Notes: a model not told the origin generated them from the letters alone. 64,000 nt of DNA from Dehalococcoidia bacterium (GCA_965214735.1 OZ243977.1:1621801-1685800), one strand, 5' to 3'; positions 1 through 33,594 are shown, counted from the stretch's first letter. Numbers and translations: made by a program.

Positions 1-575
1 CGTCGCCCTCGTATGCCCGATCCATCAGCAGCCGCGGGCTTCCGAGCTGCGGGCCGAGGCGTTCGAGCAGCCGGCGACCCTCCGGCGCGTCGTGCGCCTG
101 TCCCGGCGACAGGGAGAACGTCACGGCCGTCCGAGCATCCGCGGCAGCCATATGAATCTTGGTGGTCCAACCGCCCCGGGACTTCCCGATCGACTGGGGT
201 CCGTTTTTTTTAAGGCCCCCGTCCCGTCCGGATGCACCTTGACGATGGTGCTGTCCAAAGAGACCGCCTCCAGCTTGACACGCACTATCTGTTCTCTCTG
301 AAGGTGTTCGAACACCCGGTCTAGAACCCCCTTCTTCGACCAGCGGTTCATGCGGGTATAGATCGTGTGCCAGTTGCCGAACCGGGCCGGCAGCCCGCGC
401 CACTTGCAGCCGTGCTCGGCCACATACAGGATCGCGTTCAGAACCTGGAGGTTCGGGACGCTGACGTTGCCGCGCTGCACAGGCAGGTACGGAGCTATGC
501 GTTCGTATTGAGATTCTGTGATTTCCATGCGGAAAGCGTAGCACAGATCCACACGCTAGTGTTAACACGCCCTAG
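1..575 (-). mobile_element. IS5-family (IS427/IS1031-like) insertion sequence, copy 1, cut by the window edge
   Basis: The reverse complement matches the first ~575 bp of the complete copies at 16956-17776 and 32789-33610. The terminal sequence ...CGCTAGTGTTAACACGCCCTAG ends at 575. A T8 run at 204-211 equals an A8 run on the coding strand. Confidence 0.9.
121..552 (-). CDS. IS5-family transposase OrfA (N-terminal DNA-binding part, DUF4096-like)
   Basis: The 143-aa ORF is identical to OrfA of copy 2 (MEITESQYERIAPYLP...NRWSKKGVLDRVFEHL). It ends shortly after the A8 run. Confidence 0.85.
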   Translation of the reverse strand: MDLCYAFRMEITESQYERIAPYLPVQRGNVSVPNLQVLNAILYVAEHGCKWRGLPARFGNWHTIYTRMNRWSKKGVLDRVFEHLQREQIVRVKLEAVSLDSTIVKVHPDGTGALKKTDPSRSGSPGAVGPPRFIWLPRMLGRP

Positions 576-1803
576 TGCGCTCACTTTGGGAGTCTGCGTG
601 ATAGATTGACTGGGTTTCCAAGCGGGATGAGCATCAAGAGCCGCTTGCACATGCTCCTCAGCAGGCGACATGAACAGACGTTTGCGGTCTCCCTCGGCGA
701 CTATGGCGGTCATCTGCTCGCCCATCTTGCCGGCTTTCGCCTGCTCGCGCACGTACGCGAGCCTGACCGTGTTCCCGCAGGCGATGCAGGTGGTGCCAGT
801 GCGGTTGACATTGCCGGTTTCCGGCACTCCAACCTTGTGGTTCTGGACTGCGAATGAGACCGATCTGGCTTCGTCATCGATGACCGGACGGATCCAGCGC
901 TGGTTGCCGCGCTTCTTGGAGAGCTGGAAGGTTTTCATCATCGGAATCTTGATGCCGCATGCCGGGTTGGGGCATGGGATCGTGCGCGTCCAGAGCCAGG
1001 CGATGACGGTTCTCTCGATGCCGTCGGCATCCTTCACTTCGGGGTAGAGATGTCCGATGCGTCTGAAGGCTTCTTCTCGCATCCACTTGCCGTAGTATCG
1101 GATGTCGTTCGCCAGCCCCGCCGTGCCTCGCCATGGGATTCGCTGTCTGCGCCTGCCTCTGCCGGTGGTCATGCCCATGGGGTCGGAGTCGGGATTGACG
1201 GGAGGCTGGCTGTGGAACTTGGGCGGCAGCTCGATGAGGGACTTGGTGATGAGTACTGCGATGGGGTTGAGATCCGATCCCATCGCTTTCATTCCGAGTC
1301 TCTGCGCTTCTAGCGGGATGGAGCCTCCGCCGCAGAACGGGTCGTAGATGGCGGGCGCGTTGTCGCGGAGGTATCGGAGGGTGAGAGCGGAAGTGACATG
1401 GGGGGGGGGGGGGGGGGGTAGCTTGGGATGTGACGGGTGGGAATGGCGGCTTGTCGGGCGACCGGGCGATTGAGCGTGCGATCTCGCGTCGGGCTCGAGC
1501 CAGCAGGTCATCGTCGTTGGTGTTCTGCCACTTGACGAGTTCCTTGATCAGGTCGTGGAGACGCTGTCTTTCGATGCGTTGAGACTCTTCGGTCCGGAAT
1601 TCTTGGGGGCACGCTGACGGGTCGTCGACCATGCTGGCGAATATGACGGCGCGGCAGGCGGCGAGGGGGCGTCTCGCCCACCAGAGGTGGAGAGTGGAGG
1701 GGTGCCCGTGTCGGATGGACTTCTCGCGCGCCGATTCGGCGTTTACGACATCGAGCGGGAGGTCGACCTCGATGAGTTTCTTGCGATATGGCGTGTCTGG
1801 CAT
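576..1803 (-). pseudogene. DUF1156/COG1743-type DNA methyltransferase, frameshifted at a homopolymer and 3'-truncated by IS copy 1
   Basis: ORFs 874-1803 and 495-1511 are one gene in two frames. The N-terminus reads [18 protein letters not shown]...[15 protein letters not shown]. After the C19 tract come the SAM motif [18 protein letters not shown] and the Zn-ribbon-like CPNPAC...CIACG. The frame runs directly into the IS end at 575, so the C-terminal half, including catalytic motif IV, is absent here. Confidence 0.8.
1400..1418. repeat. G19 homopolymer (C19 / poly-Pro on the coding strand) inside the methylase gene
   Basis: Counted directly: g at 1400 plus 18 g at 1401-1418. The two methylase reading frames switch exactly here. 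Confidence 0.95.
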
Positions 1804-2984: not shown

Positions 2985-3086
2985 TTAAAAGATGTCGACG
3001 ATCTTGTGGATTAGCTGGCTGTTCAGATGTCCAGTCTCAGCTTGATATCGTCTTAAAGAGATGCTGTCGCCGGCGATGGATTTTGA
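2985..3086 (-). pseudogene. relic of a DUF499-gene 3' end (internally deleted, frameshifted copy)
   Basis: The minus strand reads SKSIAGDSISL..., versus ASKSIGDSISLDD in the intact gene. 3044-3086 aligns to 6156-6194 and 3026-3046 aligns to 6003-6023 (18/21). The relic therefore lacks the 132 nt in between and carries small indels. It abuts IR-L of the transposon. Confidence 0.6.
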
Positions 3087-3107
3087 TGGAACTTATATAC
3101 GAGTTTA
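3087..3107. repeat. IR-L of the IS1595-family transposon
   Basis: TGGAACTTATATACGAGTTTA, the exact reverse complement of 5750-5770. Confidence 0.9.
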
Positions 3108-3130
3108 CCCAAGCCCAGACCCGATATTTG

Positions 3131-3159
3131 TTGACAATATTAGTTATATTTGATATAAT
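3131..3159 (+). promoter_or_regulatory. perfect sigma70-type consensus promoter (TTGACA-N17-TATAAT) for the transposase/MTase operon
   Basis: TTGACA lies at 3131-3136, a 17-nt spacer follows, and TATAAT lies at 3154-3159. The ATG is at 3166, only 6 nt after the -10 element, and no SD is visible. The mRNA is therefore probably leaderless or nearly so. Confidence 0.7.
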
Positions 3160-3165
3160 GAAGAT

Positions 3166-4140
3166 ATGGCAACAAAGCAAATAGCACCGGGTCAATCCCA
3201 TCGCGAAGGTATCTCGCTTTTCAAAGTGATGAAGATGTTCAGCACGGAACTCAAGTCAGAGAACTGGTTCATCGAACAGCGGTGGGGGTCAAGGTCGAAA
3301 ATCGCCTGCCCGTTCTGCGAAAGCCGCAACATCCTGCATTGCAAGAACCGCAAGCCACAACCGTTCCGGTGCCGCGAATGTCGCAAACAATTCAGTGTCA
3401 AGACCGACACTTTCATGCACGGATCGAAGGTACCGCTATCGAAGTGGGGCGTGGCGATATACCTCTACAGCACCAGTCTCAAAGGTGTGAGTTCCATGAA
3501 ACTGCACAGAGACTTGGACGTGACGCAGAAGACCGCATGGTACATGGCGCACCGTATCCGTGAGGCGTGGGACACGTTCGAAAATCCGTTTCACGGACCG
3601 GTAGAGGTTGACGAGGTCTACATAGGCGGACTGGATCGCAACCGACATGCGTGGAAGGTCAAGGAAGGTCGTGGACCCAAAGGCAAAACCGCTGTCGTGG
3701 GAATGAAGGACCGTGACACCAATATGGTGACCGCAGAAGTCATCGAAACCACTGACAAAGAGACGTTGCAGGGTTTCGTTGAAGTCAACACCGAAGTTGA
3801 TGCAGAAGTCTACACGGATGGCAACCCGTCGTACGCCACTCTGAACCGCATTCACTTGTCAGTGGATCACTCCAACGAGGTCTATGTGGAAGGGAATACC
3901 CACACCAATGGAATAGAGTCGTTCTGGGCAATGTTCAAGCGCGGACACAAAGGCACGTATCACAAGATGTCCAAGAAACATCTGCACCGCTACATGTCCG
4001 AGTTCGCGGGCAGGCACAACGCTCGTCCGCTGGACACTGAAGACCAGATGGGACGTGTAGTCCGTCTGGGCGAAAGGAAGCGTCTGCGATACACTGATCT
4101 GATCGGACCACAGCACACACGTCGAAATCTGACTCTGTAA
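3166..4140 (+). CDS. IS1595-family transposase (N-terminal Zn-ribbon plus ISXO2-like DDE domain)
   Basis: CPFCESRNILHCKNRKPQPFRCRECRKQF Zn-ribbon, then VEVDEVYIGG ... NGIESFWAMFKRGHKGTYHKMSKKHLHRYMSEFAGRHN, which is typical of IS1595/ISXO2 transposases. Confidence 0.9.
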   Translation: MATKQIAPGQSHREGISLFKVMKMFSTELKSENWFIEQRWGSRSKIACPFCESRNILHCKNRKPQPFRCRECRKQFSVKTDTFMHGSKVPLSKWGVAIYLYSTSLKGVSSMKLHRDLDVTQKTAWYMAHRIREAWDTFENPFHGPVEVDEVYIGGLDRNRHAWKVKEGRGPKGKTAVVGMKDRDTNMVTAEVIETTDKETLQGFVEVNTEVDAEVYTDGNPSYATLNRIHLSVDHSNEVYVEGNTHTNGIESFWAMFKRGHKGTYHKMSKKHLHRYMSEFAGRHNARPLDTEDQMGRVVRLGERKRLRYTDLIGPQHTRRNLTL

Positions 4141-4207
4141 GAGGCGTGCCCTGACATGAACAGTAGCGGTACCCCCCCATTTTCCTACAAACGTTCAAAA
4201 CAGGACG

Positions 4208-5581
4208 TTGTTCCACGGCGACAATTTGGGGTTTCTGCGCGGGATGAATAGCGGCACGGTGCACCTCATCGCCACGGACCCGCCGTTCAACAAGAACCGC
4301 GACTTTCACGCCACGCCGGACAGTCTGTCGGCAGGTGCAAGGTTCCAAGACCGCTGGTCGTGGGACCGGGACGTTCATGAGGAGTGGACGGATGCTATCA
4401 AGGATGACTGGCCCGCTGCTTGGGCTGTGATCGACTGGTCGAGAATGACCTACGGGGACGACATGGCAGCGTTCCTGTGCTGGCTTGGCGTGCGGTTGAT
4501 GGAGATGCACCGCGTGTTGCGCGACGATGGGAGCATATACCTGCACATAGACCATACGGCGCACGCTTACGTGAAGACGCTGATGGACGCGATATTCGGG
4601 CGTAAGAACTTCAGAAACGAAATCGTGTGGCACTACACTGGTGGTGGTCGTAGCAAGACGTATTTTTCTCGTAAGCATGATTCTCTGTTGTACTACGCGA
4701 AAAACGCTAATCAGGCTGTATTCAATGTAGATGCAATTCGTGAACCATACAAAAAAACAAGTGGCTATGCACGAGGTGGAATCACAGCAAAAAGCGGCAA
4801 AAAGTACATGCCGAATCCCAAAGGCACGCCAGTAGATGATGTTTGGGATATACCGATTATCAATCCGCTAAGTAGAGAACGATATGGTTATCCTACCCAG
4901 AAACCGCTTACGCTTTACGAGCGTATCATCAAAGCGTCATCTAACGAGGGAGACATCGTACTTGATCCGTTCTGCGGATGTGCCACTACACCTATAGCAG
5001 CTGAACGCCTGGGGCGGCGGTGGATAGGGATGGACATTTGGGATGGTGCTGCGGACATTGTGAAACAACGCTTGGAAGATGAACGGCGCATGTTCGCATC
5101 CGAACATGTCCAAGTAATCACAATACCTCCAGTTCGAACCGACGATAACGATGTTGCTGCACCTGTTCTACGTATCAGATTGCACCGTCCGATGGAGCCT
5201 TGGCAACGCTTGACGCACAAGCAGATGTCCAATGTGCTGGTGTATTGCCAAAGCAATGGAGAAGGTGTGGTCTGTGCAGGTTGTGGACGCGTCCTCGAAA
5301 AGGAGTTCATGCAACTGGATCACATCATGCCACGATCAGACCGTGGTACCAACGACATTCTCAATCGTATCCTTCTATGCGGTCCCTGCAACTTGAGAAA
5401 GAGCAATACCTTGACGCTGGCAGGTCTGTTGAAGGAGAACAGAAAGAATGGTTGGATGAAGCACGCCGTACGCGCCCAGACAGCCAGGGATAACGCGGAA
5501 GTGTGTGCGTTACGAGTACGAGACGAGTTTGATACGTCTGAATGTCAATCACTCATCAATGGGAGAAGACTACCGATATGA
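4208..5581 (+). CDS. beta-class N6A/N4C DNA methyltransferase fused to a C-terminal HNH endonuclease domain
   Basis: Motif IV DPPF (LIATDPPFNKNRDF) precedes PTQKP and motif I (VLDPFCGCATTPIAAERLGRRWIGMD). The C-terminus has an HNH signature, CAGCGRVLEKEFMQLDHIMPRSDRGTNDILNRILLCGPCNLRKSN. TTG is the first possible start after an in-frame stop at 4157-4159. Confidence 0.85.
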   Translation: MFHGDNLGFLRGMNSGTVHLIATDPPFNKNRDFHATPDSLSAGARFQDRWSWDRDVHEEWTDAIKDDWPAAWAVIDWSRMTYGDDMAAFLCWLGVRLMEMHRVLRDDGSIYLHIDHTAHAYVKTLMDAIFGRKNFRNEIVWHYTGGGRSKTYFSRKHDSLLYYAKNANQAVFNVDAIREPYKKTSGYARGGITAKSGKKYMPNPKGTPVDDVWDIPIINPLSRERYGYPTQKPLTLYERIIKASSNEGDIVLDPFCGCATTPIAAERLGRRWIGMDIWDGAADIVKQRLEDERRMFASEHVQVITIPPVRTDDNDVAAPVLRIRLHRPMEPWQRLTHKQMSNVLVYCQSNGEGVVCAGCGRVLEKEFMQLDHIMPRSDRGTNDILNRILLCGPCNLRKSNTLTLAGLLKENRKNGWMKHAVRAQTARDNAEVCALRVRDEFDTSECQSLINGRRLPI

Positions 5582-5736
5582 CATACCGGCGCAGACCTAA
5601 AGACGAACGATTCAAGTTGTCGAAAAAGATCAGTAAGAAACGATACGTCATGCCAGCTCGGATCGACGCACATCCAGAAGAGATTGCACGCGGTATCTTA
5701 AGCATTCGAGGATACGCCAAGCGAGCTAAGTCATGA
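5578..5736 (+). CDS. small basic hypothetical protein (52 aa), start overlaps the MTase-HNH stop (ATGA)
   Basis: ATG at 5578-5580 overlaps TGA at 5579-5581. The product is MTYRRRPKDERFKLSKKISKKRYVMPARIDAHPEEIARGILSIRGYAKRAKS. It ends 13 nt before IR-R. I recognise no homology. Confidence 0.35.
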   Translation: MTYRRRPKDERFKLSKKISKKRYVMPARIDAHPEEIARGILSIRGYAKRAKS

Positions 5737-5749
5737 ATCAAGGTTTGGC

Positions 5750-5770
5750 TAAACTCGTATATAAGTTCCA
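5750..5770. repeat. IR-R of the IS1595-family transposon
   Basis: TAAACTCGTATATAAGTTCCA, the exact reverse complement of 3087-3107. Confidence 0.9.
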
Positions 5771-5902
5771 AGATTTTCCTGTGTTGCTTGGACCGACAAA
5801 CACGGTCAAAGGACGCAGGTCGATGCTGGCCTCGGCGATTGATCCGAAGTTGGAGATTGTTAATTCAAGAGACTTTGTGCTGGTGGGTAACGCAGTAGTC
5901 AT
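5771..5902 (-). pseudogene. N-terminal 44 codons of an AAA/ABC-type ATPase (AAA_15/AAA_21/OLD-like N-terminus), truncated by the IS1595-family transposon
   Basis: Hand translation of the minus strand gives MTTALPTSTKSLELTISNFGSIAEASIDLRPLTVFVGPSNTGKS, with Walker A GPSNTGKS. A strong SD (GAGGAGGAAGG) lies about 9 nt upstream of the ATG at 5902. The frame hits IR-R at 5770 and stops 11 codons later. The ORF is too short for the ORF track. Confidence 0.7.
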
Positions 5903-5981: not shown

Positions 5982-8900
5982 TCATTCAGTTGTATCTGTA
6001 ACGATGTCCAGTCCTAGCTGGATGCCGTTTTCGCGGATCGAGCGGGTTATGTTCTGGGAGAAGCCGTGTGCATTTTGAGCTTCGATGATGATTCTGACGG
6101 TGACTTCTCCCCCACCGTCGTGCAGAGTGCGGATGATCTCGCTCTGCAGCTGGCTGATGTCGTCTAAAGAGATGCTGTCGCCGATGGATTTGGATGCGGT
6201 GATGCGCCTAGGGCCAGGAGGGGGCGCGGCTGAAAGAGTATCGGTTGGTGAGGACGGGATTGGTTCTCGGCGCTCTTGCTCTACGTAGTATTCGCTCGGC
6301 TCATTTTTCCTATCCTCTGATTGTTGAATCTGCGCGATCTCGTGACGGACTAGGAACCCCGGACTTTCGGCTAGGCGGTTGAGGGTTTCTCGGTATGCGA
6401 GGTTGTGGTACCGATCTCCGCTGTTTTCGGTGGCTTCACTGTAGCCGGTGGCGTGTCCGAATGCTCCCGATTGGACTCCTTCGGCGATGCAGGCGTTCAA
6501 TACGCTGCGGTTGCGGAGTCGCGGCATGTAGATGTAGGATGCGATGATGTTCCACAGGATGTCTATGTCGATGTGGTAGTCGTTATAGTTTTCGTTGGAC
6601 CAGATGTATCTCTCGAGGATGTTCACCAGTGCACTTGGTGCGATGCGGTCGACGAGGACTTCTTCGGCGATGCATTTGGCGAGTGCGCTTTGGATGATGT
6701 CGCCGGTGTTCGGCGCGTCTGTCTGGAGGGTAGAGAATTTGTATCTTCCGTCCGATGAATCGTCTTGAGCCGGTGCCAATGCCCATTTGTAGGCGTTGGG
6801 AAGCTGACTGACGACTTGGTTTTCAGCAGCTCTGAGGTTGCGTTCGGCTTCTCGTTTACGCGCTCCTTCGAGTGTGAGTTTTCGATCTCCGTTGAGGATG
6901 GAGTCCCACGCTAGATATGTGGTGGCGGCGCGTCTGAGCGTGTTTACATCGTCGTATCTTGCGGCGAGGAAGATGATGGTGTTGAGCTTGGTGCGTTTGG
7001 CATCGCCTCTGTTCAAGAGGATGTTGAGTGCCTCATCATGAGCGTAGTTGGCATCTGCCTGCCTTGATTTCAGGTAGCTCGAGGGTGGAAGTATGACGAG
7101 TCGGACGTTGTCGGATTCTGGGATTTTTTGCGATGATTCGGGGCATACGATGACATCGGATGTTCTGGAGTCTCTGGCGGCTTCGTGCAGCTGGTCGATG
7201 ATGTAGTGGTCTGTATGTTCGTTGCTTATCTGATCGGCGCGGTCGGCGGCGACTTTGTTCAGGTTCTCTTCGGTGTGGAAGTAGTATCGGTGGTCAGCTG
7301 CGCGGTATAGGTAGTAGAGCTGGCCATGCATCAGTTCCAAGGCGTCGCGATAAGTTGCGGCTGACTGTGTGGGCTCGACCGATGCGAGCATGACTTCGCG
7401 TCGTCCGATGCCTCTGATGGCGCGAGTTGGTGCGCTGGCGAGGAATACGGCTCTAGCGGCTCTTCGGGCGGCGCCTCCGACGTCTGCGAAGCGTTTCTGT
7501 GTTCTATCGATGATGTCGGTTCGGGAGTCTGTGCCGTCGATTTCGGTGATTACGGGTTCCCATCTTCCGTCTAGTACTTTTGTGAATTCGGCGCTGAGCG
7601 CGGGGTCGTCTAGCGGTAGTGATGCGGGGATGATGAGAGGCGAAGAGTCTCGTTGCAGGTAGAGCCTGCTGATGGTGTTCGCCATGATTCGTAGAACGCC
7701 GCGGGTGCGTTGGAATTTATGGATGGTGGACCAGTCTGTGTATAGGCGGTTGAATATCTCTGGGTGAATGGGGTAGCAGTTTTTGATTCTCTGCAGGTAT
7801 CGTGTTTCGGATGCTTCGGCTGGGAACTGCTTCTTCAGGTTGCCGCCGTACATATTTGAGAATGCTTGGCATGTTCGGTCGCGCTCTTGTTCATCGATGG
7901 AATCGGTAAAGAGTCTGCGTCGTATCACTTCGTAAGCTTCGTTTACTTCGAGGGGATGCCAGATAGATTCGGTTCTGCCGAAGAGTTGATCGAGCCGGTT
8001 TAGTGCTTCCATGCCTGCATCGCCGCCGGCTTCGGCTTCGCTTTCTGGCAGTGTCACGACGACGGTGACGTTTTTGCTTCTGCCGGCTGATTCGGTGAGC
8101 GCTTGCAGGAATGTGTATATGCTTCCGACGTTTTCTCGCGGCACGTTTCGCACGTAAGCGACGAGCTCGTCGATCAATATTACGGCGGGGCCTGTGTGTT
8201 GGAACAGCTGGTCCAGCTGAGCGCCGGCGGGTGCGGTCTGTGTACGTGCGGCTTCGGCGATGATGTCGTATGCTTGTTGGCTGCCGAGCTGGTATGCGAT
8301 CTGTCCCCAGAGTGTGTTGAGGGGGTCTCCGTTGGGTGTCTTTTGGCTGTCGGTTGGTGAGTGGTATGTACCGCTGATGACTGCGACTTTGGCTTTATCG
8401 GTTGTTTCGGTGTCTACCTCAGCTTCTTTGAACAGTTCAAGGATTTCTTGATTTTCGGTTAGTTGGTTGATGGATTTTGCGAGATGGAATAGTGCGATGA
8501 GGCTGTGTGTCTTGCCTCCTCCGAAGCCGGTTTTGGTTTGGATTACGGGGTCGCCGCCTTTTGCGTTGATTCGCTTGATGGCGTTTACGAGAAGTGAGTG
8601 TATGCCTGGGGTGATGTAAGTCCGTTTGAAGAATTCTCTGGGGTTTCCGTATTCGGGCGTCGCTTTGCCGTTTTGGACTTGTATGAGGTCGGCTGCGAAC
8701 TCGGATTCTGAGAAGTTTCCCTCGGCGACGTCGGAGTGTGGCTGGATGACATTGCGCCATGGTGCGAGGTTGGATGAGCTAGCGCGTGGTTTTGCGGCGG
8801 GTTTTGGTTGTGCTTTGGTTTCTTTTGGAGGTGCTGCTACTTGAACGGTGGTCGTGGTCGCTGGTGCGGGTCTGGTTTCGGGTGCGATGGGTTGTGCGGT

Positions 8901-9353
8901 CAGACCGTCTCGTATCTCTTCTACGGCGTGTTTCTGGTCTGGAGCGTTGACGATGCCGAGGATTTCGGCAATGTCGGTGAGTCTTGAGCGCGCCGTTTCA
9001 TGGTCAATCACAATGCCATGTGCCCAGCTCCTTCGGATTTCATTGACGAGTCCGTGGCGATTTAGGAAGGCGTAGCGATCGTTGATGCGTTTCGAGAATA
9101 CATCGTCCCAGTGGTTCGATACCATAGGCAAGAAATTGCCGATATCAATCGATTCTTCGACGTTGTTACCCCGTTGTCTGAGCTGTCGGTAGTAATCGTT
9201 GCTACTAGGCATAGATTCAGCGATAACGTTTTCGACAGGCCTGTTCGGGTTCGCGCGTTTCAATGATTGGATTATGAAACGTCGCATGGTATCGCGATAG
9301 ATATTTAGTCCCCTGTCCAATGCGTCTCGCGTTTTGTTACTTTGTGTGGTCAT
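5982..9353 (-). CDS. DUF499/COG1483-type P-loop ATPase with an N-terminal Swt1-like HEPN domain
   Basis: 1123 aa. The N-terminal helical domain ends in RRSWAH (Rx4H, nt 9018-9035). A Pro/Ala/Lys-rich linker follows. Then come APWRNVIQPH..., Walker A GFGGGKTHS (nt 8502-8528) and Walker B-like VILIDELVAY. Size and order are typical of DUF499 proteins. Confidence 0.8.
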   Translation of the reverse strand: MTTQSNKTRDALDRGLNIYRDTMRRFIIQSLKRANPNRPVENVIAESMPSSNDYYRQLRQRGNNVEESIDIGNFLPMVSNHWDDVFSKRINDRYAFLNRHGLVNEIRRSWAHGIVIDHETARSRLTDIAEILGIVNAPDQKHAVEEIRDGLTAQPIAPETRPAPATTTTVQVAAPPKETKAQPKPAAKPRASSSNLAPWRNVIQPHSDVAEGNFSESEFAADLIQVQNGKATPEYGNPREFFKRTYITPGIHSLLVNAIKRINAKGGDPVIQTKTGFGGGKTHSLIALFHLAKSINQLTENQEILELFKEAEVDTETTDKAKVAVISGTYHSPTDSQKTPNGDPLNTLWGQIAYQLGSQQAYDIIAEAARTQTAPAGAQLDQLFQHTGPAVILIDELVAYVRNVPRENVGSIYTFLQALTESAGRSKNVTVVVTLPESEAEAGGDAGMEALNRLDQLFGRTESIWHPLEVNEAYEVIRRRLFTDSIDEQERDRTCQAFSNMYGGNLKKQFPAEASETRYLQRIKNCYPIHPEIFNRLYTDWSTIHKFQRTRGVLRIMANTISRLYLQRDSSPLIIPASLPLDDPALSAEFTKVLDGRWEPVITEIDGTDSRTDIIDRTQKRFADVGGAARRAARAVFLASAPTRAIRGIGRREVMLASVEPTQSAATYRDALELMHGQLYYLYRAADHRYYFHTEENLNKVAADRADQISNEHTDHYIIDQLHEAARDSRTSDVIVCPESSQKIPESDNVRLVILPPSSYLKSRQADANYAHDEALNILLNRGDAKRTKLNTIIFLAARYDDVNTLRRAATTYLAWDSILNGDRKLTLEGARKREAERNLRAAENQVVSQLPNAYKWALAPAQDDSSDGRYKFSTLQTDAPNTGDIIQSALAKCIAEEVLVDRIAPSALVNILERYIWSNENYNDYHIDIDILWNIIASYIYMPRLRNRSVLNACIAEGVQSGAFGHATGYSEATENSGDRYHNLAYRETLNRLAESPGFLVRHEIAQIQQSEDRKNEPSEYYVEQERREPIPSSPTDTLSAAPPPGPRRITASKSIGDSISLDDISQLQSEIIRTLHDGGGEVTVRIIIEAQNAHGFSQNITRSIRENGIQLGLDIVTDTTE

Positions 9354-16978: not shown

Positions 16979-17766
16979 GTGGATCTGTGCTACGCTTTCC
17001 GCATGGAAATCACAGAATCTCAATACGAACGCATAGCTCCGTACCTGCCTGTGCAGCGCGGCAACGTCAGCGTCCCGAACCTCCAGGTTCTGAACGCGAT
17101 CCTGTATGTGGCCGAGCACGGCTGCAAGTGGCGCGGGCTGCCGGCCCGGTTCGGCAACTGGCACACGATCTATACCCGCATGAACCGCTGGTCGAAGAAG
17201 GGGGTTCTAGACCGGGTGTTCGAACACCTTCAGAGAGAACAGATAGTGCGTGTCAAGCTGGAGGCGGTCTCTTTGGACAGCACCATCGTCAAGGTGCATC
17301 CGGACGGGACGGGGGCCTTAAAAAAAACGGACCCCAGTCGATCGGGAAGTCCCGGGGCGGTTGGACCACCAAGATTCATATGGCTGCCGCGGATGCTCGG
17401 ACGGCCGTGACGTTCTCCCTGTCGCCGGGACAGGCGCACGACGCGCCGGAGGGTCGCCGGCTGCTCGAACGCCTCGGCCCGCAGCTCGGAAGCCCGCGGC
17501 TGCTGATGGATCGGGCATACGAGGGCGACGAGAGCCGCCAGCTGGCGCTGGACCTGGGCTTCGTCCCCGTGGTTCCGCCGCGCCGGAGCCGGATCGATCC
17601 GTGGGAGTACGACCGCGAGATGTACAAGCGGCGCAACGAGATCGAGCGGCTGTTCCGCCGGCTGAAGGGCTTCCGACGCATCTTCTCACGCTTCGAGAAG
17701 CTGGACGCGATCTTCACCGGGTTCATCATGTTCGCACTCATAACAGAGGCATTGCGCCAGTGTTAA
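16979..17766 (+). CDS. IS5-family transposase OrfAB, requires a -1 frameshift at the A8 run (OrfA alone = 16979-17410)
   Basis: OrfA ends at 17410. The -1 frame (C-terminal part of ORF 16963-17766) continues NGPQSIGKSRGGWTTKIH...DRAYEGDESRQL...NEIERLFRRLKGFRRIFSRFEKL (DDE domain). A slip on TTA_AAA_AAA_ACG gives exactly the copy-3 protein. Confidence 0.85.
17320..17327 (+). promoter_or_regulatory. A8 run containing an A_AAA_AAA -1 frameshift heptamer (IS copy 2)
   Basis: Counted directly. In the zero frame it reads TTA AAA AAA ACG. Confidence 0.7.
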
Positions 17767-32811: not shown

Positions 32812-33594
32812 GTGGATCTGTGCTACGCTTTCCGCATGGAAATCACAGAATCTCAATACGAACGCATAGCTCCGTACCTGCCTGTGCAGCGCGGCAACGT
32901 CAGCGTCCCGAACCTCCAGGTTCTGAACGCGATCCTGTATGTGGCCGAGCACGGCTGCAAGTGGCGCGGGCTGCCGGCCCGGTTCGGCAACTGGCACACG
33001 ATCTATACCCGCATGAACCGCTGGTCGAAGAAGGGGGTTCTAGACCGGGTGTTCGAACACCTTCAGAGAGAACAGATAGTGCGTGTCAAGCTGGAGGCGG
33101 TCTCTTTGGACAGCACCATCGTCAAGGTGCATCCGGACGGGACGGGGGCCTTAAAAAAAAACGGACCCCAGTCGATCGGGAAGTCCCGGGGCGGTTGGAC
33201 CACCAAGATTCATATGGCTGCCGCGGATGCTCGGACGGCCGTGACGTTCTCCCTGTCGCCGGGACAGGCGCACGACGCGCCGGAGGGTCGCCGGCTGCTC
33301 GAACGCCTCGGCCCGCAGCTCGGAAGCCCGCGGCTGCTGATGGATCGGGCATACGAGGGCGACGAGAGCCGCCAGCTGGCGCTGGACCTGGGCTTCGTCC
33401 CCGTGGTTCCGCCGCGCCGGAGCCGGATCGATCCGTGGGAGTACGACCGCGAGATGTACAAGCGGCGCAACGAGATCGAGCGGCTGTTCCGCCGGCTGAA
33501 GGGCTTCCGACGCATCTTCTCACGCTTCGAGAAGCTGGACGTGATCTTCACCGGGTTCATCATGTTCGCACTCATAACAGAGACATTGCGCTAG
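32812..33594 (+). CDS. IS5-family transposase, single fused 260-aa ORF
   Basis: It is continuous across the A9 run (33153-33161): ...HPDGTGALKKNGPQSIGKSRGGWTTKIH... This equals the predicted frameshift product of copies 1 and 2. Confidence 0.9.
   Translation: MDLCYAFRMEITESQYERIAPYLPVQRGNVSVPNLQVLNAILYVAEHGCKWRGLPARFGNWHTIYTRMNRWSKKGVLDRVFEHLQREQIVRVKLEAVSLDSTIVKVHPDGTGALKKNGPQSIGKSRGGWTTKIHMAAADARTAVTFSLSPGQAHDAPEGRRLLERLGPQLGSPRLLMDRAYEGDESRQLALDLGFVPVVPPRRSRIDPWEYDREMYKRRNEIERLFRRLKGFRRIFSRFEKLDVIFTGFIMFALITETLR
33153..33161 (+). other. A9 run (one extra A relative to copies 1 and 2) that fuses orfA and orfB
   Basis: Counted directly: 8 a at 33153-33160 plus an a at 33161. Confidence 0.9.

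Follow-up and report, generated by a model that had tools for sequence, protein, structure and literature searches.

Why is a DNA methyltransferase (MTase) joined to an HNH nuclease domain encoded between the inverted repeats (IRs) of an insertion sequence (IS), and what would such a protein do for the element or for its host? The question is raised by a stretch of 64,000 nucleotides from a Dehalococcoidia bacterium (GCA_965214735.1 OZ243977.1:1621801-1685800), referred to here as the window, in which a transposase gene, the MTase-HNH fusion gene and a small open reading frame (ORF3) follow one another within a pair of IRs. A first-pass annotation, made without database searches, had described the unit as an IS1595-family transposon carrying the fusion as cargo; the IRs, the protein domains and the related copies bounded by target site duplications (TSDs) all agree with this description, and the unit is almost certainly, judging from its sequence, a genuine transporter IS (tIS) of the IS1595 family. 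For the locus as a whole, the explanation that we favour, and consider moderately probable, is that of a tIS whose cargo is restriction-modification (RM)-like and switched by a poly-C tract, and whose copy in the window has been rearranged.

The element and its relatives

tISs, in which passenger genes lie within the IS, are a recognised category that is stated to be restricted to the IS1595 and IS66 families (bioRxiv 10.1101/2021.05.26.445724). A passenger that has no part in transposition is found between the IRs of the window unit and of 13 TSD-bounded relatives. The transposase, annotated earlier as of IS1595/ISXO2 type, is placed in the IS1595 family by both its domain and its NCBIfam scores: it matches DDE_Tnp_IS1595 (PF12762) with E=9e-37 and 127 bits (cut-off 27) and transpos_IS1595 of NCBIfam with 182 bits (cut-off 75). 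The match to Zn_ribbon_IS1595 (PF12760; E=7e-5, 23.1 bits) is slightly below the cut-off of 25.4, and the zinc-ribbon residues C48, C51, C69 and C72 are invariant in 12 relatives; a zinc ribbon at the N-terminus is an IS1595-family feature that is missing only from the IS1016 group (PMC8101967). The transposase also keeps D149, D218 and E251 together with E279-x3-R283, as it keeps every residue that is invariant among its relatives.

The ends of the unit are defined by a 21-mer, TGGAACTTATATACGAGTTTA, which the window contains at two sites only, 3087-3107 (+) and 5750-5770 (-), and 100 shuffles led us to expect no such pair by chance. The perfect 21-bp repeats and the 2684-bp unit of the first-pass annotation are therefore both recovered, and the repeats can be extended to 29 nt with 27/29 positions (93%) matching. 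Terminal IRs, a trait of the IS1595 family, are thus present in the window element, perfect over 21/21 positions and homologous to those of its relatives. An exact 20-mer of the IR, GGAACTTATATACGAGTTTA (3088-3107), had 11 single matches in JGI metagenomes, mostly in human-gut contigs, which were treated as chance or irrelevant. Three ORFs on one strand behind one promoter had been proposed, and this arrangement holds: the sigma-70 promoter just inside the left IR (IRL; Table 1) is the sole one on the + strand of the unit, where no further promoter-like or terminator-like site was found, and a sister element, L085, has the same perfect promoter inside its IRL.

Relatives were sought with the fusion protein as query in 185,579 species-representative genomes, a scan that returned 80 loci from many phyla (here and below, L numbers denote loci); an IS1595 transposase adjoins the fusion gene in 15 of the 80, and this association recurs over 35-78% identity and in two gene orders. 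Two loci of one assembly with different genomic surroundings, L001 and L002, hold 100% identical units of 2832 bp with a transposase, an MTase-HNH gene and an ORF3 homologue; this transposase, P0121 (75% identical), is the closest relative of that of the window, and the IRs of the units, GGGAGTTATATACCAGTTTAGCCA, are clearly homologous to those of the window and are flanked by perfect 8-bp target duplications (TTTGCATT and AATTTAAT). IRs and an 8-bp TSD enclose the transposase and MTase-HNH genes in nine further loci (L016, L026, L051, L065, L068, L071, in which 7/8 positions match, L073, L074 and L077), where most IRs follow the consensus GGGAATTATATAC and the genes are either co-directional or convergent. 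Together with L001, L002, L084 and L103, at least 13 TSD-bounded insertions carry MTase and HNH. Further TSD-bounded members are L084 (transposase 78% identical), L103, L085/L086, L104 and L099, and the duplication is complete (8/8) in L001, L002, L016, L026, L051, L065, L068, L073, L074, L077, L084, L085, L099, L103 and L104. The first-pass annotation had made its reading depend on other copies with such ends, and homologous IRs do bound many related copies. The transposase would bind both IRs, move the whole unit and duplicate 8 bp of the target, as shown for these relatives and presumed for the window copy.

Not all members of the lineage carry the same genes. L100 and L101, with transposases about 60% identical, are plain ISs without cargo. 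The transposase of L085 is 69% identical to that of the window, and its cargo consists of a D12-class (Dam-type) MTase beside a separate winged helix-turn-helix (wHTH)-HNH protein, whose HNH domain aligns to the fused HNH domain of the window with 34% identity (E=4e-6). The surroundings of some insertions were also recorded. L085 (2500-5560) sits between a McrB-like AAA_5 gene and DUF8425, and L099 (3953-8683) lies inside a Type ISP RM gene, whose Type_ISP_C domain resumes past the element; with the window copy, three insertions of the lineage are in or beside defence loci. A unit of another kind is present at L041 (5860-7309), where a solo MTase-HNH gene with no transposase forms a 1450-bp unit with perfect 20-bp IRs, GGTTGTGTTGCGTTAGTGTG, between two copies of the same 8-bp flank, GAACAACC; this unit may represent a MIC-like, non-autonomous cassette for cargo that belongs to an IS of another type. 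Its IR was found in no other fetched locus. IS-type IRs with TSDs around other solo genes were considered and dismissed as GC-rich 7/8 noise; L041 alone stood out, and its IR is unrelated.

The MTase-HNH fusion protein

Both domains that had been assigned to the 457-amino-acid ORF are present, and what that ORF lacks is its ancestral start, which is treated below. The N6_N4_Mtase profile matches with E=2e-53, and the C-terminal domain, for which an HNH profile search had been suggested, matches PF01844 with E=4e-10 and 40 bits (cut-off 21.4). In 66 homologues the motifs DPPF (motif IV) and VLDPFxGCATT (motif I; VLDPFCGCATT in the window) are invariant, as are the HNH residues C356/C359, D371-H372, N386 and C391/C394-N395, which form the pattern CxxC..DH..N..CxxCN. 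An AlphaFold model of the fusion has a mean pLDDT of 80, rising above 90 across the HNH domain. The predicted MTase fold matches M.RsrI, M.MboIIA, CcrM and M.BceJIV (Foldseek target TM-scores 0.66-0.80; phmmer E=1e-24 to 2e-15 against these beta-class N6-adenine MTases). The Foldseek search of the PDB matched the MTase part alone and returned no solved structure with an MTase-HNH fusion. The HNH domain is of the Cas9/IscB type, with matches to NCBIfam guided_IscB (E=2e-7) and to the Cas9 HNH, and PADLOC matches the fusion to MTase models only.

The fusion family is very large, with at least 8000 matches, mostly of 470-490 amino acids, in Chloroflexota, Poribacteria, Proteobacteria, Acidobacteriota, Nitrospira and one metagenome-assembled genome (MAG) of Nitrosopumilus; this spread of taxa implies wide horizontal transfer. 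At least one member is archaeal, L032 (Nitrosopumilus sp. MAG, OZ242041.1). Many host names (Poribacteria, Poriferihabitaceae, Dehalococcoidia and Nitrospira) suggest sponge-symbiont communities, an ecology taken from record titles only.

Comparison with paralogues bears on how specificity might change. A paralogue in the same genome, P0002, is 95% identical to the window fusion in the N-terminal part and 36% identical in the target recognition domain, and P0004 has the reverse pattern (71% in the N-terminal part, 77% in the recognition region). The recognition region of the fusion thus appears to be a mosaic, shuffled between paralogues, and it coincides with a dip in GC content (0.45 vs 0.60 on the upstream side).

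Around solo members of the family the surroundings are unrelated housekeeping genes, with no recurrent Pfam family among 96 neighbouring ORFs, and since these homologues have no conserved neighbour the fusion would work alone. Among annotated phages and plasmids no record spans MTase and HNH together, and MTase-only homologues are abundant there; a scan of IMG/VR with patterns of the close clade gave no match. At L003 (1-13422) a 67%-identical fusion, P0003, stands amid genes for Thy1, a sigma-70-like factor, dCTP deaminase and SSB, a phage- or prophage-like neighbourhood. The literature search found nothing specific on N6_N4_Mtase-HNH fusions or on IS-borne MTase-HNH, and such elements are not described in a paper on thaumarchaeal mobile genetic elements. 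Within the literature searched and the PDB, no characterised example of a beta-class MTase with a C-terminal HNH domain was found.

ORF3 and the cargo slot

The first-pass annotation had counted the small basic ORF, translationally coupled to the fusion gene, among the cargo. The coupling stands; its place in the cargo does not, for ORF3 is the last gene before the right IR (IRR) in every member of the transposase clade of the window, regardless of cargo. Its family comprises 18 clusters with the conserved core ERF..Y.MP..I.A..EI.R....G..K and has no match in Pfam, PHROG, PADLOC or NCBIfam. Being present whatever the cargo, ORF3 is a backbone gene, and it may encode a regulator or an end-binding factor. 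The layout of the lineage is therefore IRL, promoter, DDE transposase, cargo slot, ORF3 and IRR. The slot holds an MTase-HNH gene in the window, L001/L002, L084 and L103, the Dam MTase with the wHTH-HNH protein in L085, a TM2-domain protein with unknown genes in L104, and several unrelated genes in L099. Fusions with just 43% identity are found beside transposases with 75% identity, which indicates that the cargo has been swapped. At the junction of transposase and cargo, stop and start overlap as TGATG in L001, L084 and L103, and this junction is remodelled in the lineage of the window and L102. An extra ORF of about 105 amino acids, with no Pfam match, lies between IRL and transposase in L001 (5645-5968) and L103 (2445-2759) and is missing from the window element.

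The poly-C tract and the start of the fusion gene

Homologues of the fusion begin with M..PNFxNRTLYHGDNL, and in the window the conserved stretch runs on upstream of the TTG from which the 457-codon frame is read. The ATG at 4156, which would be the ancestral start, is offset from that frame by one base, across a run of seven cytosines (C7). With C6 the gene would encode 474 amino acids, and either C6 or C9 gives an in-frame protein of 474/475 amino acids with a homologue-like N-terminus. In L102, where another assembly keeps a relic of this element with 84% identity, the homologous site holds C16 vs C7 in the window. The same order of ATG, leader, poly-C and conserved N-terminus is seen in unrelated genomes, in frame with C7 in L036 and out of frame with C15 in L017. 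Among family genes, coding-strand C runs of at least seven at the 5' end were observed five times against 0.71 expected (P about 8e-4). This layout and enrichment match the known way in which homopolymers drive phase variation in RM genes, among them cj0031, a phase-variable single-chain Type IIG enzyme that serves as a precedent (PMC8355987). Slipped-strand changes in the length of this tract, which follows the ATG and precedes the conserved N-terminus, would turn translation ON or OFF, and in the assembled C7 state the gene would be OFF or translated from the internal TTG only. That the tract is a phase-variation switch of the fusion gene is a possibility to which, on this pattern, we give slightly less than even weight.

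Other homopolymers were recorded. The 64-kb window has just three G/C runs of at least seven, two of them in DNA-methylase genes. In hmaB, a methylase gene of the surrounding island, a G19 run at 1400-1418 (C19 on the coding strand, encoding PPPPPP) marks the exact point where the frame breaks into two overlapping ORFs, and is a candidate either for a phase-variable Hma methylase or for a homopolymer assembly error. G/C homopolymers of 11-16 nt also lie within 5 kb of MTase-HNH genes at L015:11040, L017:8819, L052:5106, L062:9659 and L032:9176.

The flanks and the surrounding island

The first-pass annotation had the element disrupting the ATPase gene of another system within a defence island. 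A truncated ATPase gene does stand on the right (Table 1), but no single gene is split, as the left flank is a remnant of hmaC and no TSD is present: the 8-bp flanks, GATTTTGA and AGATTTTC, match at 3/8 positions. A simple insertion with a TSD was tried at all end offsets of ±4 nt and rejected, as just an offset 6-mer, GATTTT, was found. In a local alignment the left flank scores 103 against the hmaC 3' end vs 54 ± 5 for shuffles, with about 41 of the last 46 nt identical. Because the TSD is missing and the flanks come from two genes, the junction has very probably been rearranged since insertion. Most simply, either a deletion that the IS brought about next to itself or recombination involving two copies of it would have joined the truncated ATPase gene to the hmaC remnant, with loss of the TSD.

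Table 1. Features of the element and its flanks (positions in the window).
Feature	Position	Strand	Remarks
hmaB (DUF1156 adenine methylase)	495..1803	-	Frame broken at G19 (1400-1418); 3' end cut by IS4/5-type element
Left flank, degenerate partial copy of hmaC 3' end	2990..3086	-	Not the remainder of the ATPase gene
IRL	3087..3115	+	Homologous to ends of related tISs, GGGAATTATATAC(G/C)AGTTTAGCCA
Sigma-70 promoter, TTGACA-17 nt-TATAAT, TG before -10 (extended -10)	3131..3159	+	12/12 consensus; just inside IRL
IS1595-family DDE transposase, 324 amino acids, full length	3166..4140	+	Pfam and NCBIfam profiles
Ancestral start (ATG 4156) and leader of MTase-HNH gene	4156..4207	+	C7 tract inside, 4172-4178
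MTase-HNH fusion (beta-class N6A/N4C MTase, C-terminal HNH), 457 amino acids from TTG	4208..5581	+	Profile matches
MTase domain	about 4259-5065	+	Within fusion gene
Hypervariable recognition region	about 4652-4876	+	Within fusion gene
HNH domain	about 5273-5407	+	Within fusion gene
ORF3, basic protein of 52 amino acids, no known domain	5578..5736	+	ATG overlaps MTase-HNH stop (ATGA)
IRR	5742..5770	-	Inverted partner of IRL, 27/29
Right flank, first 44 codons of AriA/OLD/GajA-like defence ATPase	5771..5902	-	Includes Walker A GPSNTGKS; truncated at IS end
hmaC (HEPN_Swt1 and DUF499 ATPase), Hma defence system	5982..9353	-	Intact; 821 bits

From the state of its genes, the surrounding island appears to be a decaying Hma system; of the ATPase HmaC, the methylase HmaB and the helicase HmaA that make up such a system, the analysis covered the first two. 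A low-GC (35-39%) gene for a DUF6338 membrane protein (2265-2966, +), on the strand opposite to the hmaC remnant and hmaB, lies between these two and has the look of a further foreign insertion. Elsewhere in the window, the sequence cgggacgggggcctt-A8/A9-cggaccccagtcgat occurs in three copies, at 204-211 (-), 17320-17327 (+) and 33153-33161 (+), in which the A run has a length of 8 or 9; one copy lies in a DUF4096 (IS4/5 OrfA) gene at 121-552. The three are probably copies of an IS5-family element with the A run as its -1 frameshift site.

Function of the cargo

The explanation favoured here takes the cargo to be a single-polypeptide RM-like enzyme, in which the beta-class MTase with its exchangeable recognition region would methylate a specific site and the tethered HNH domain would cut or nick DNA that is without the mark; the host would gain a portable defence gene, and the IS a selectable and possibly addictive passenger. 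The best available argument is L085, where the split MTase and wHTH-HNH proteins have the ordinary layout of a modification and a restriction gene (M + R) and so favour an RM-like fusion, and to judge by such comparisons an RM-like function is evenly poised between true and false. Addiction by post-segregational killing is a conjecture. More ambitiously, beta-MTase-HNH proteins could be a distinct, self-contained RM type with a swapped recognition module and poly-C gating, which a dedicated IS1595 lineage with its cargo slot would spread, within communities of symbionts, among bacterial phyla and perhaps archaea as a defence or addiction cassette of a single gene; this we offer tentatively, as rather doubtful. 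Several observations count against the favoured explanation. A nuclease tethered to its own MTase might have other roles, 65 of the 80 loci are not on an IS, and the unrelated cargo of L104 and L099 makes the association with MTase-HNH recurrent rather than obligatory. As for the window copy, it is the single copy of the element within 64 kb, its outermost 5-6 nt are TGGAAC vs the GGGAA consensus of active relatives, it shows the missing TSD described above, and the 11 JGI contigs with a match to its IR are without transposase or other element homology, so the window copy may be unable to move. The frameshift at C7, finally, is possibly a long-read homopolymer error or plain decay, and cargo decay is seen in relatives, with a frameshift without homopolymer in L103, a deletion in L102 and a truncation in L051.

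If the cargo were instead an orphan MTase without restriction, it could protect the element or incoming DNA or act epigenetically, and its HNH domain would be a binding, nicking or processivity module comparable to the C-terminal DNA-binding domain of CcrM. The presence of CcrM, a solitary MTase, among the closest solved relatives is consistent with this, as are the lack of a separate restriction endonuclease partner near fusion genes, the PADLOC result and the MTase-only homologues of phages and plasmids. We nevertheless hold it to be unlikely: invariant catalytic and zinc residues of the HNH domain in 66 homologues are unexpected for pure binding, L085 has its HNH as a separate protein beside a Dam MTase in the standard M + R layout, and both the shuffling of the recognition region and the 5' poly-C tracts resemble RM enzymes. 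Another conceivable role of the HNH domain, by analogy with TnpB/IscB of IS200/IS605, is in the service of the transposon, cutting empty or target sites for homing, retention or transposition while the MTase marks self DNA. Its Cas9/IscB-type sequence and the recurrence of the IS1595 association across divergent members and both gene orders would suit such a role, which is nonetheless very improbable, for most members (the 65 noted above) have no nearby transposase and stand amid housekeeping genes, and the same IS lineage moves with entirely different cargo (L104 and L099) or, in its plain relatives L100 and L101, with none, so that the nuclease is not needed for mobility. The window copy might, lastly, be a dead relic, immobile and decaying, whose cargo is a pseudogene and whose C7 frameshift reflects decay or assembly error instead of regulation. 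Its missing TSD, rearranged flanks and non-consensus outer ends agree with this, and so do the decaying island (hmaB frameshifted and truncated, IS4/5 copies), the clearly degraded relatives L102 and L103, and the A run of another IS in the window, whose length (A8 vs A9) varies by copy, perhaps through sequencing error. Against it, no interruption and no loss of a family-invariant residue affects the transposase, the 457 MTase-HNH codons or ORF3, both IRs retain 21 perfect base pairs, the promoter matches the consensus throughout, and the sole lesion is one of length, by 1 nt, in a tract whose length demonstrably varies; on this evidence we judge a dead copy to be fairly unlikely.

Significance

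If the fusion does restrict DNA, it would form the smallest imaginable mobile defence unit, one mark-and-cut gene on a 2.7-kb IS, and a very large uncharacterised enzyme family would be defined, whose modular recognition domains are a possible source of new specificities. How elements of the IS1595 family turn into gene transporters can be approached concretely through the conserved cargo slot and ORF3. Host-adapted pathogens are well known for contingency-locus switching of DNA modification, and the poly-C tracts in both methylase genes of the island suggest that it might occur in uncultivated environmental or symbiotic lineages too. Should the function not be confirmed, the locus would still be well documented, as an ordinary tIS whose passenger is a methylase.

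Comparison with known systems

The MTase part of the fusion shares its fold and motif order with M.MboIIA, M.RsrI, M.BceJIV and CcrM, but these have no HNH domain, and motif I reads GCATT in the fusion vs GSGTT in these enzymes. With the single-chain RM enzymes of Type IIG/IIC, such as MmeI and Cj0031 of C. jejuni, the fusion has in common that one chain holds both nuclease and MTase, that its recognition region is single and exchangeable and that no partner gene is present. In known Type IIG enzymes, however, the nuclease is N-terminal and of the PD-(D/E)XK kind and the MTase is of gamma class, whereas the fusion joins a beta-class MTase, closest to M.MboIIA and M.RsrI, to a C-terminal Cas9/IscB-like HNH domain that would cleave DNA. 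The homopolymer near the 5' end of some fusion members is a further likeness to cj0031 (PMC8355987). The linkage of RM genes to mobile elements is well known (PMC12707154). Like mobile-element-borne Type II RM systems, the unit carries MTase and nuclease on a transposable element and has insertions in or beside defence genes (the window, the McrB-like locus of L085 and the Type ISP gene of L099); it differs in that a single gene, or two in L085, is carried in a minimal IS and not on a plasmid, prophage or composite transposon.

The closest likeness is to IS1595-family tISs, with which the unit shares a zinc-ribbon DDE_Tnp_IS1595 transposase, short IRs beginning with GG, a passenger within the IRs and, in relatives, an 8-bp TSD. 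The ends of the relatives, GGGAATTAT, fit ggnnatTAT, which we take to be the signature of ISNwi1, and those of the window, TGGAACTTAT, deviate from it; the ISNwi1 subgroup is presumably marked by a DDEK + ER4 transposase and passenger genes, and with its E279-x3-R283 the window element is a candidate member only. What sets the unit apart is that its cargo is an MTase and HNH module, fused or split, that a small conserved backbone gene, ORF3, closes a defined cargo slot, and that the window copy is without a TSD. The carrier thus belongs to the known IS1595-family tISs, a structural interpretation that is solid, and the RM-like function and the phase switch of its cargo are put forward as hypotheses.

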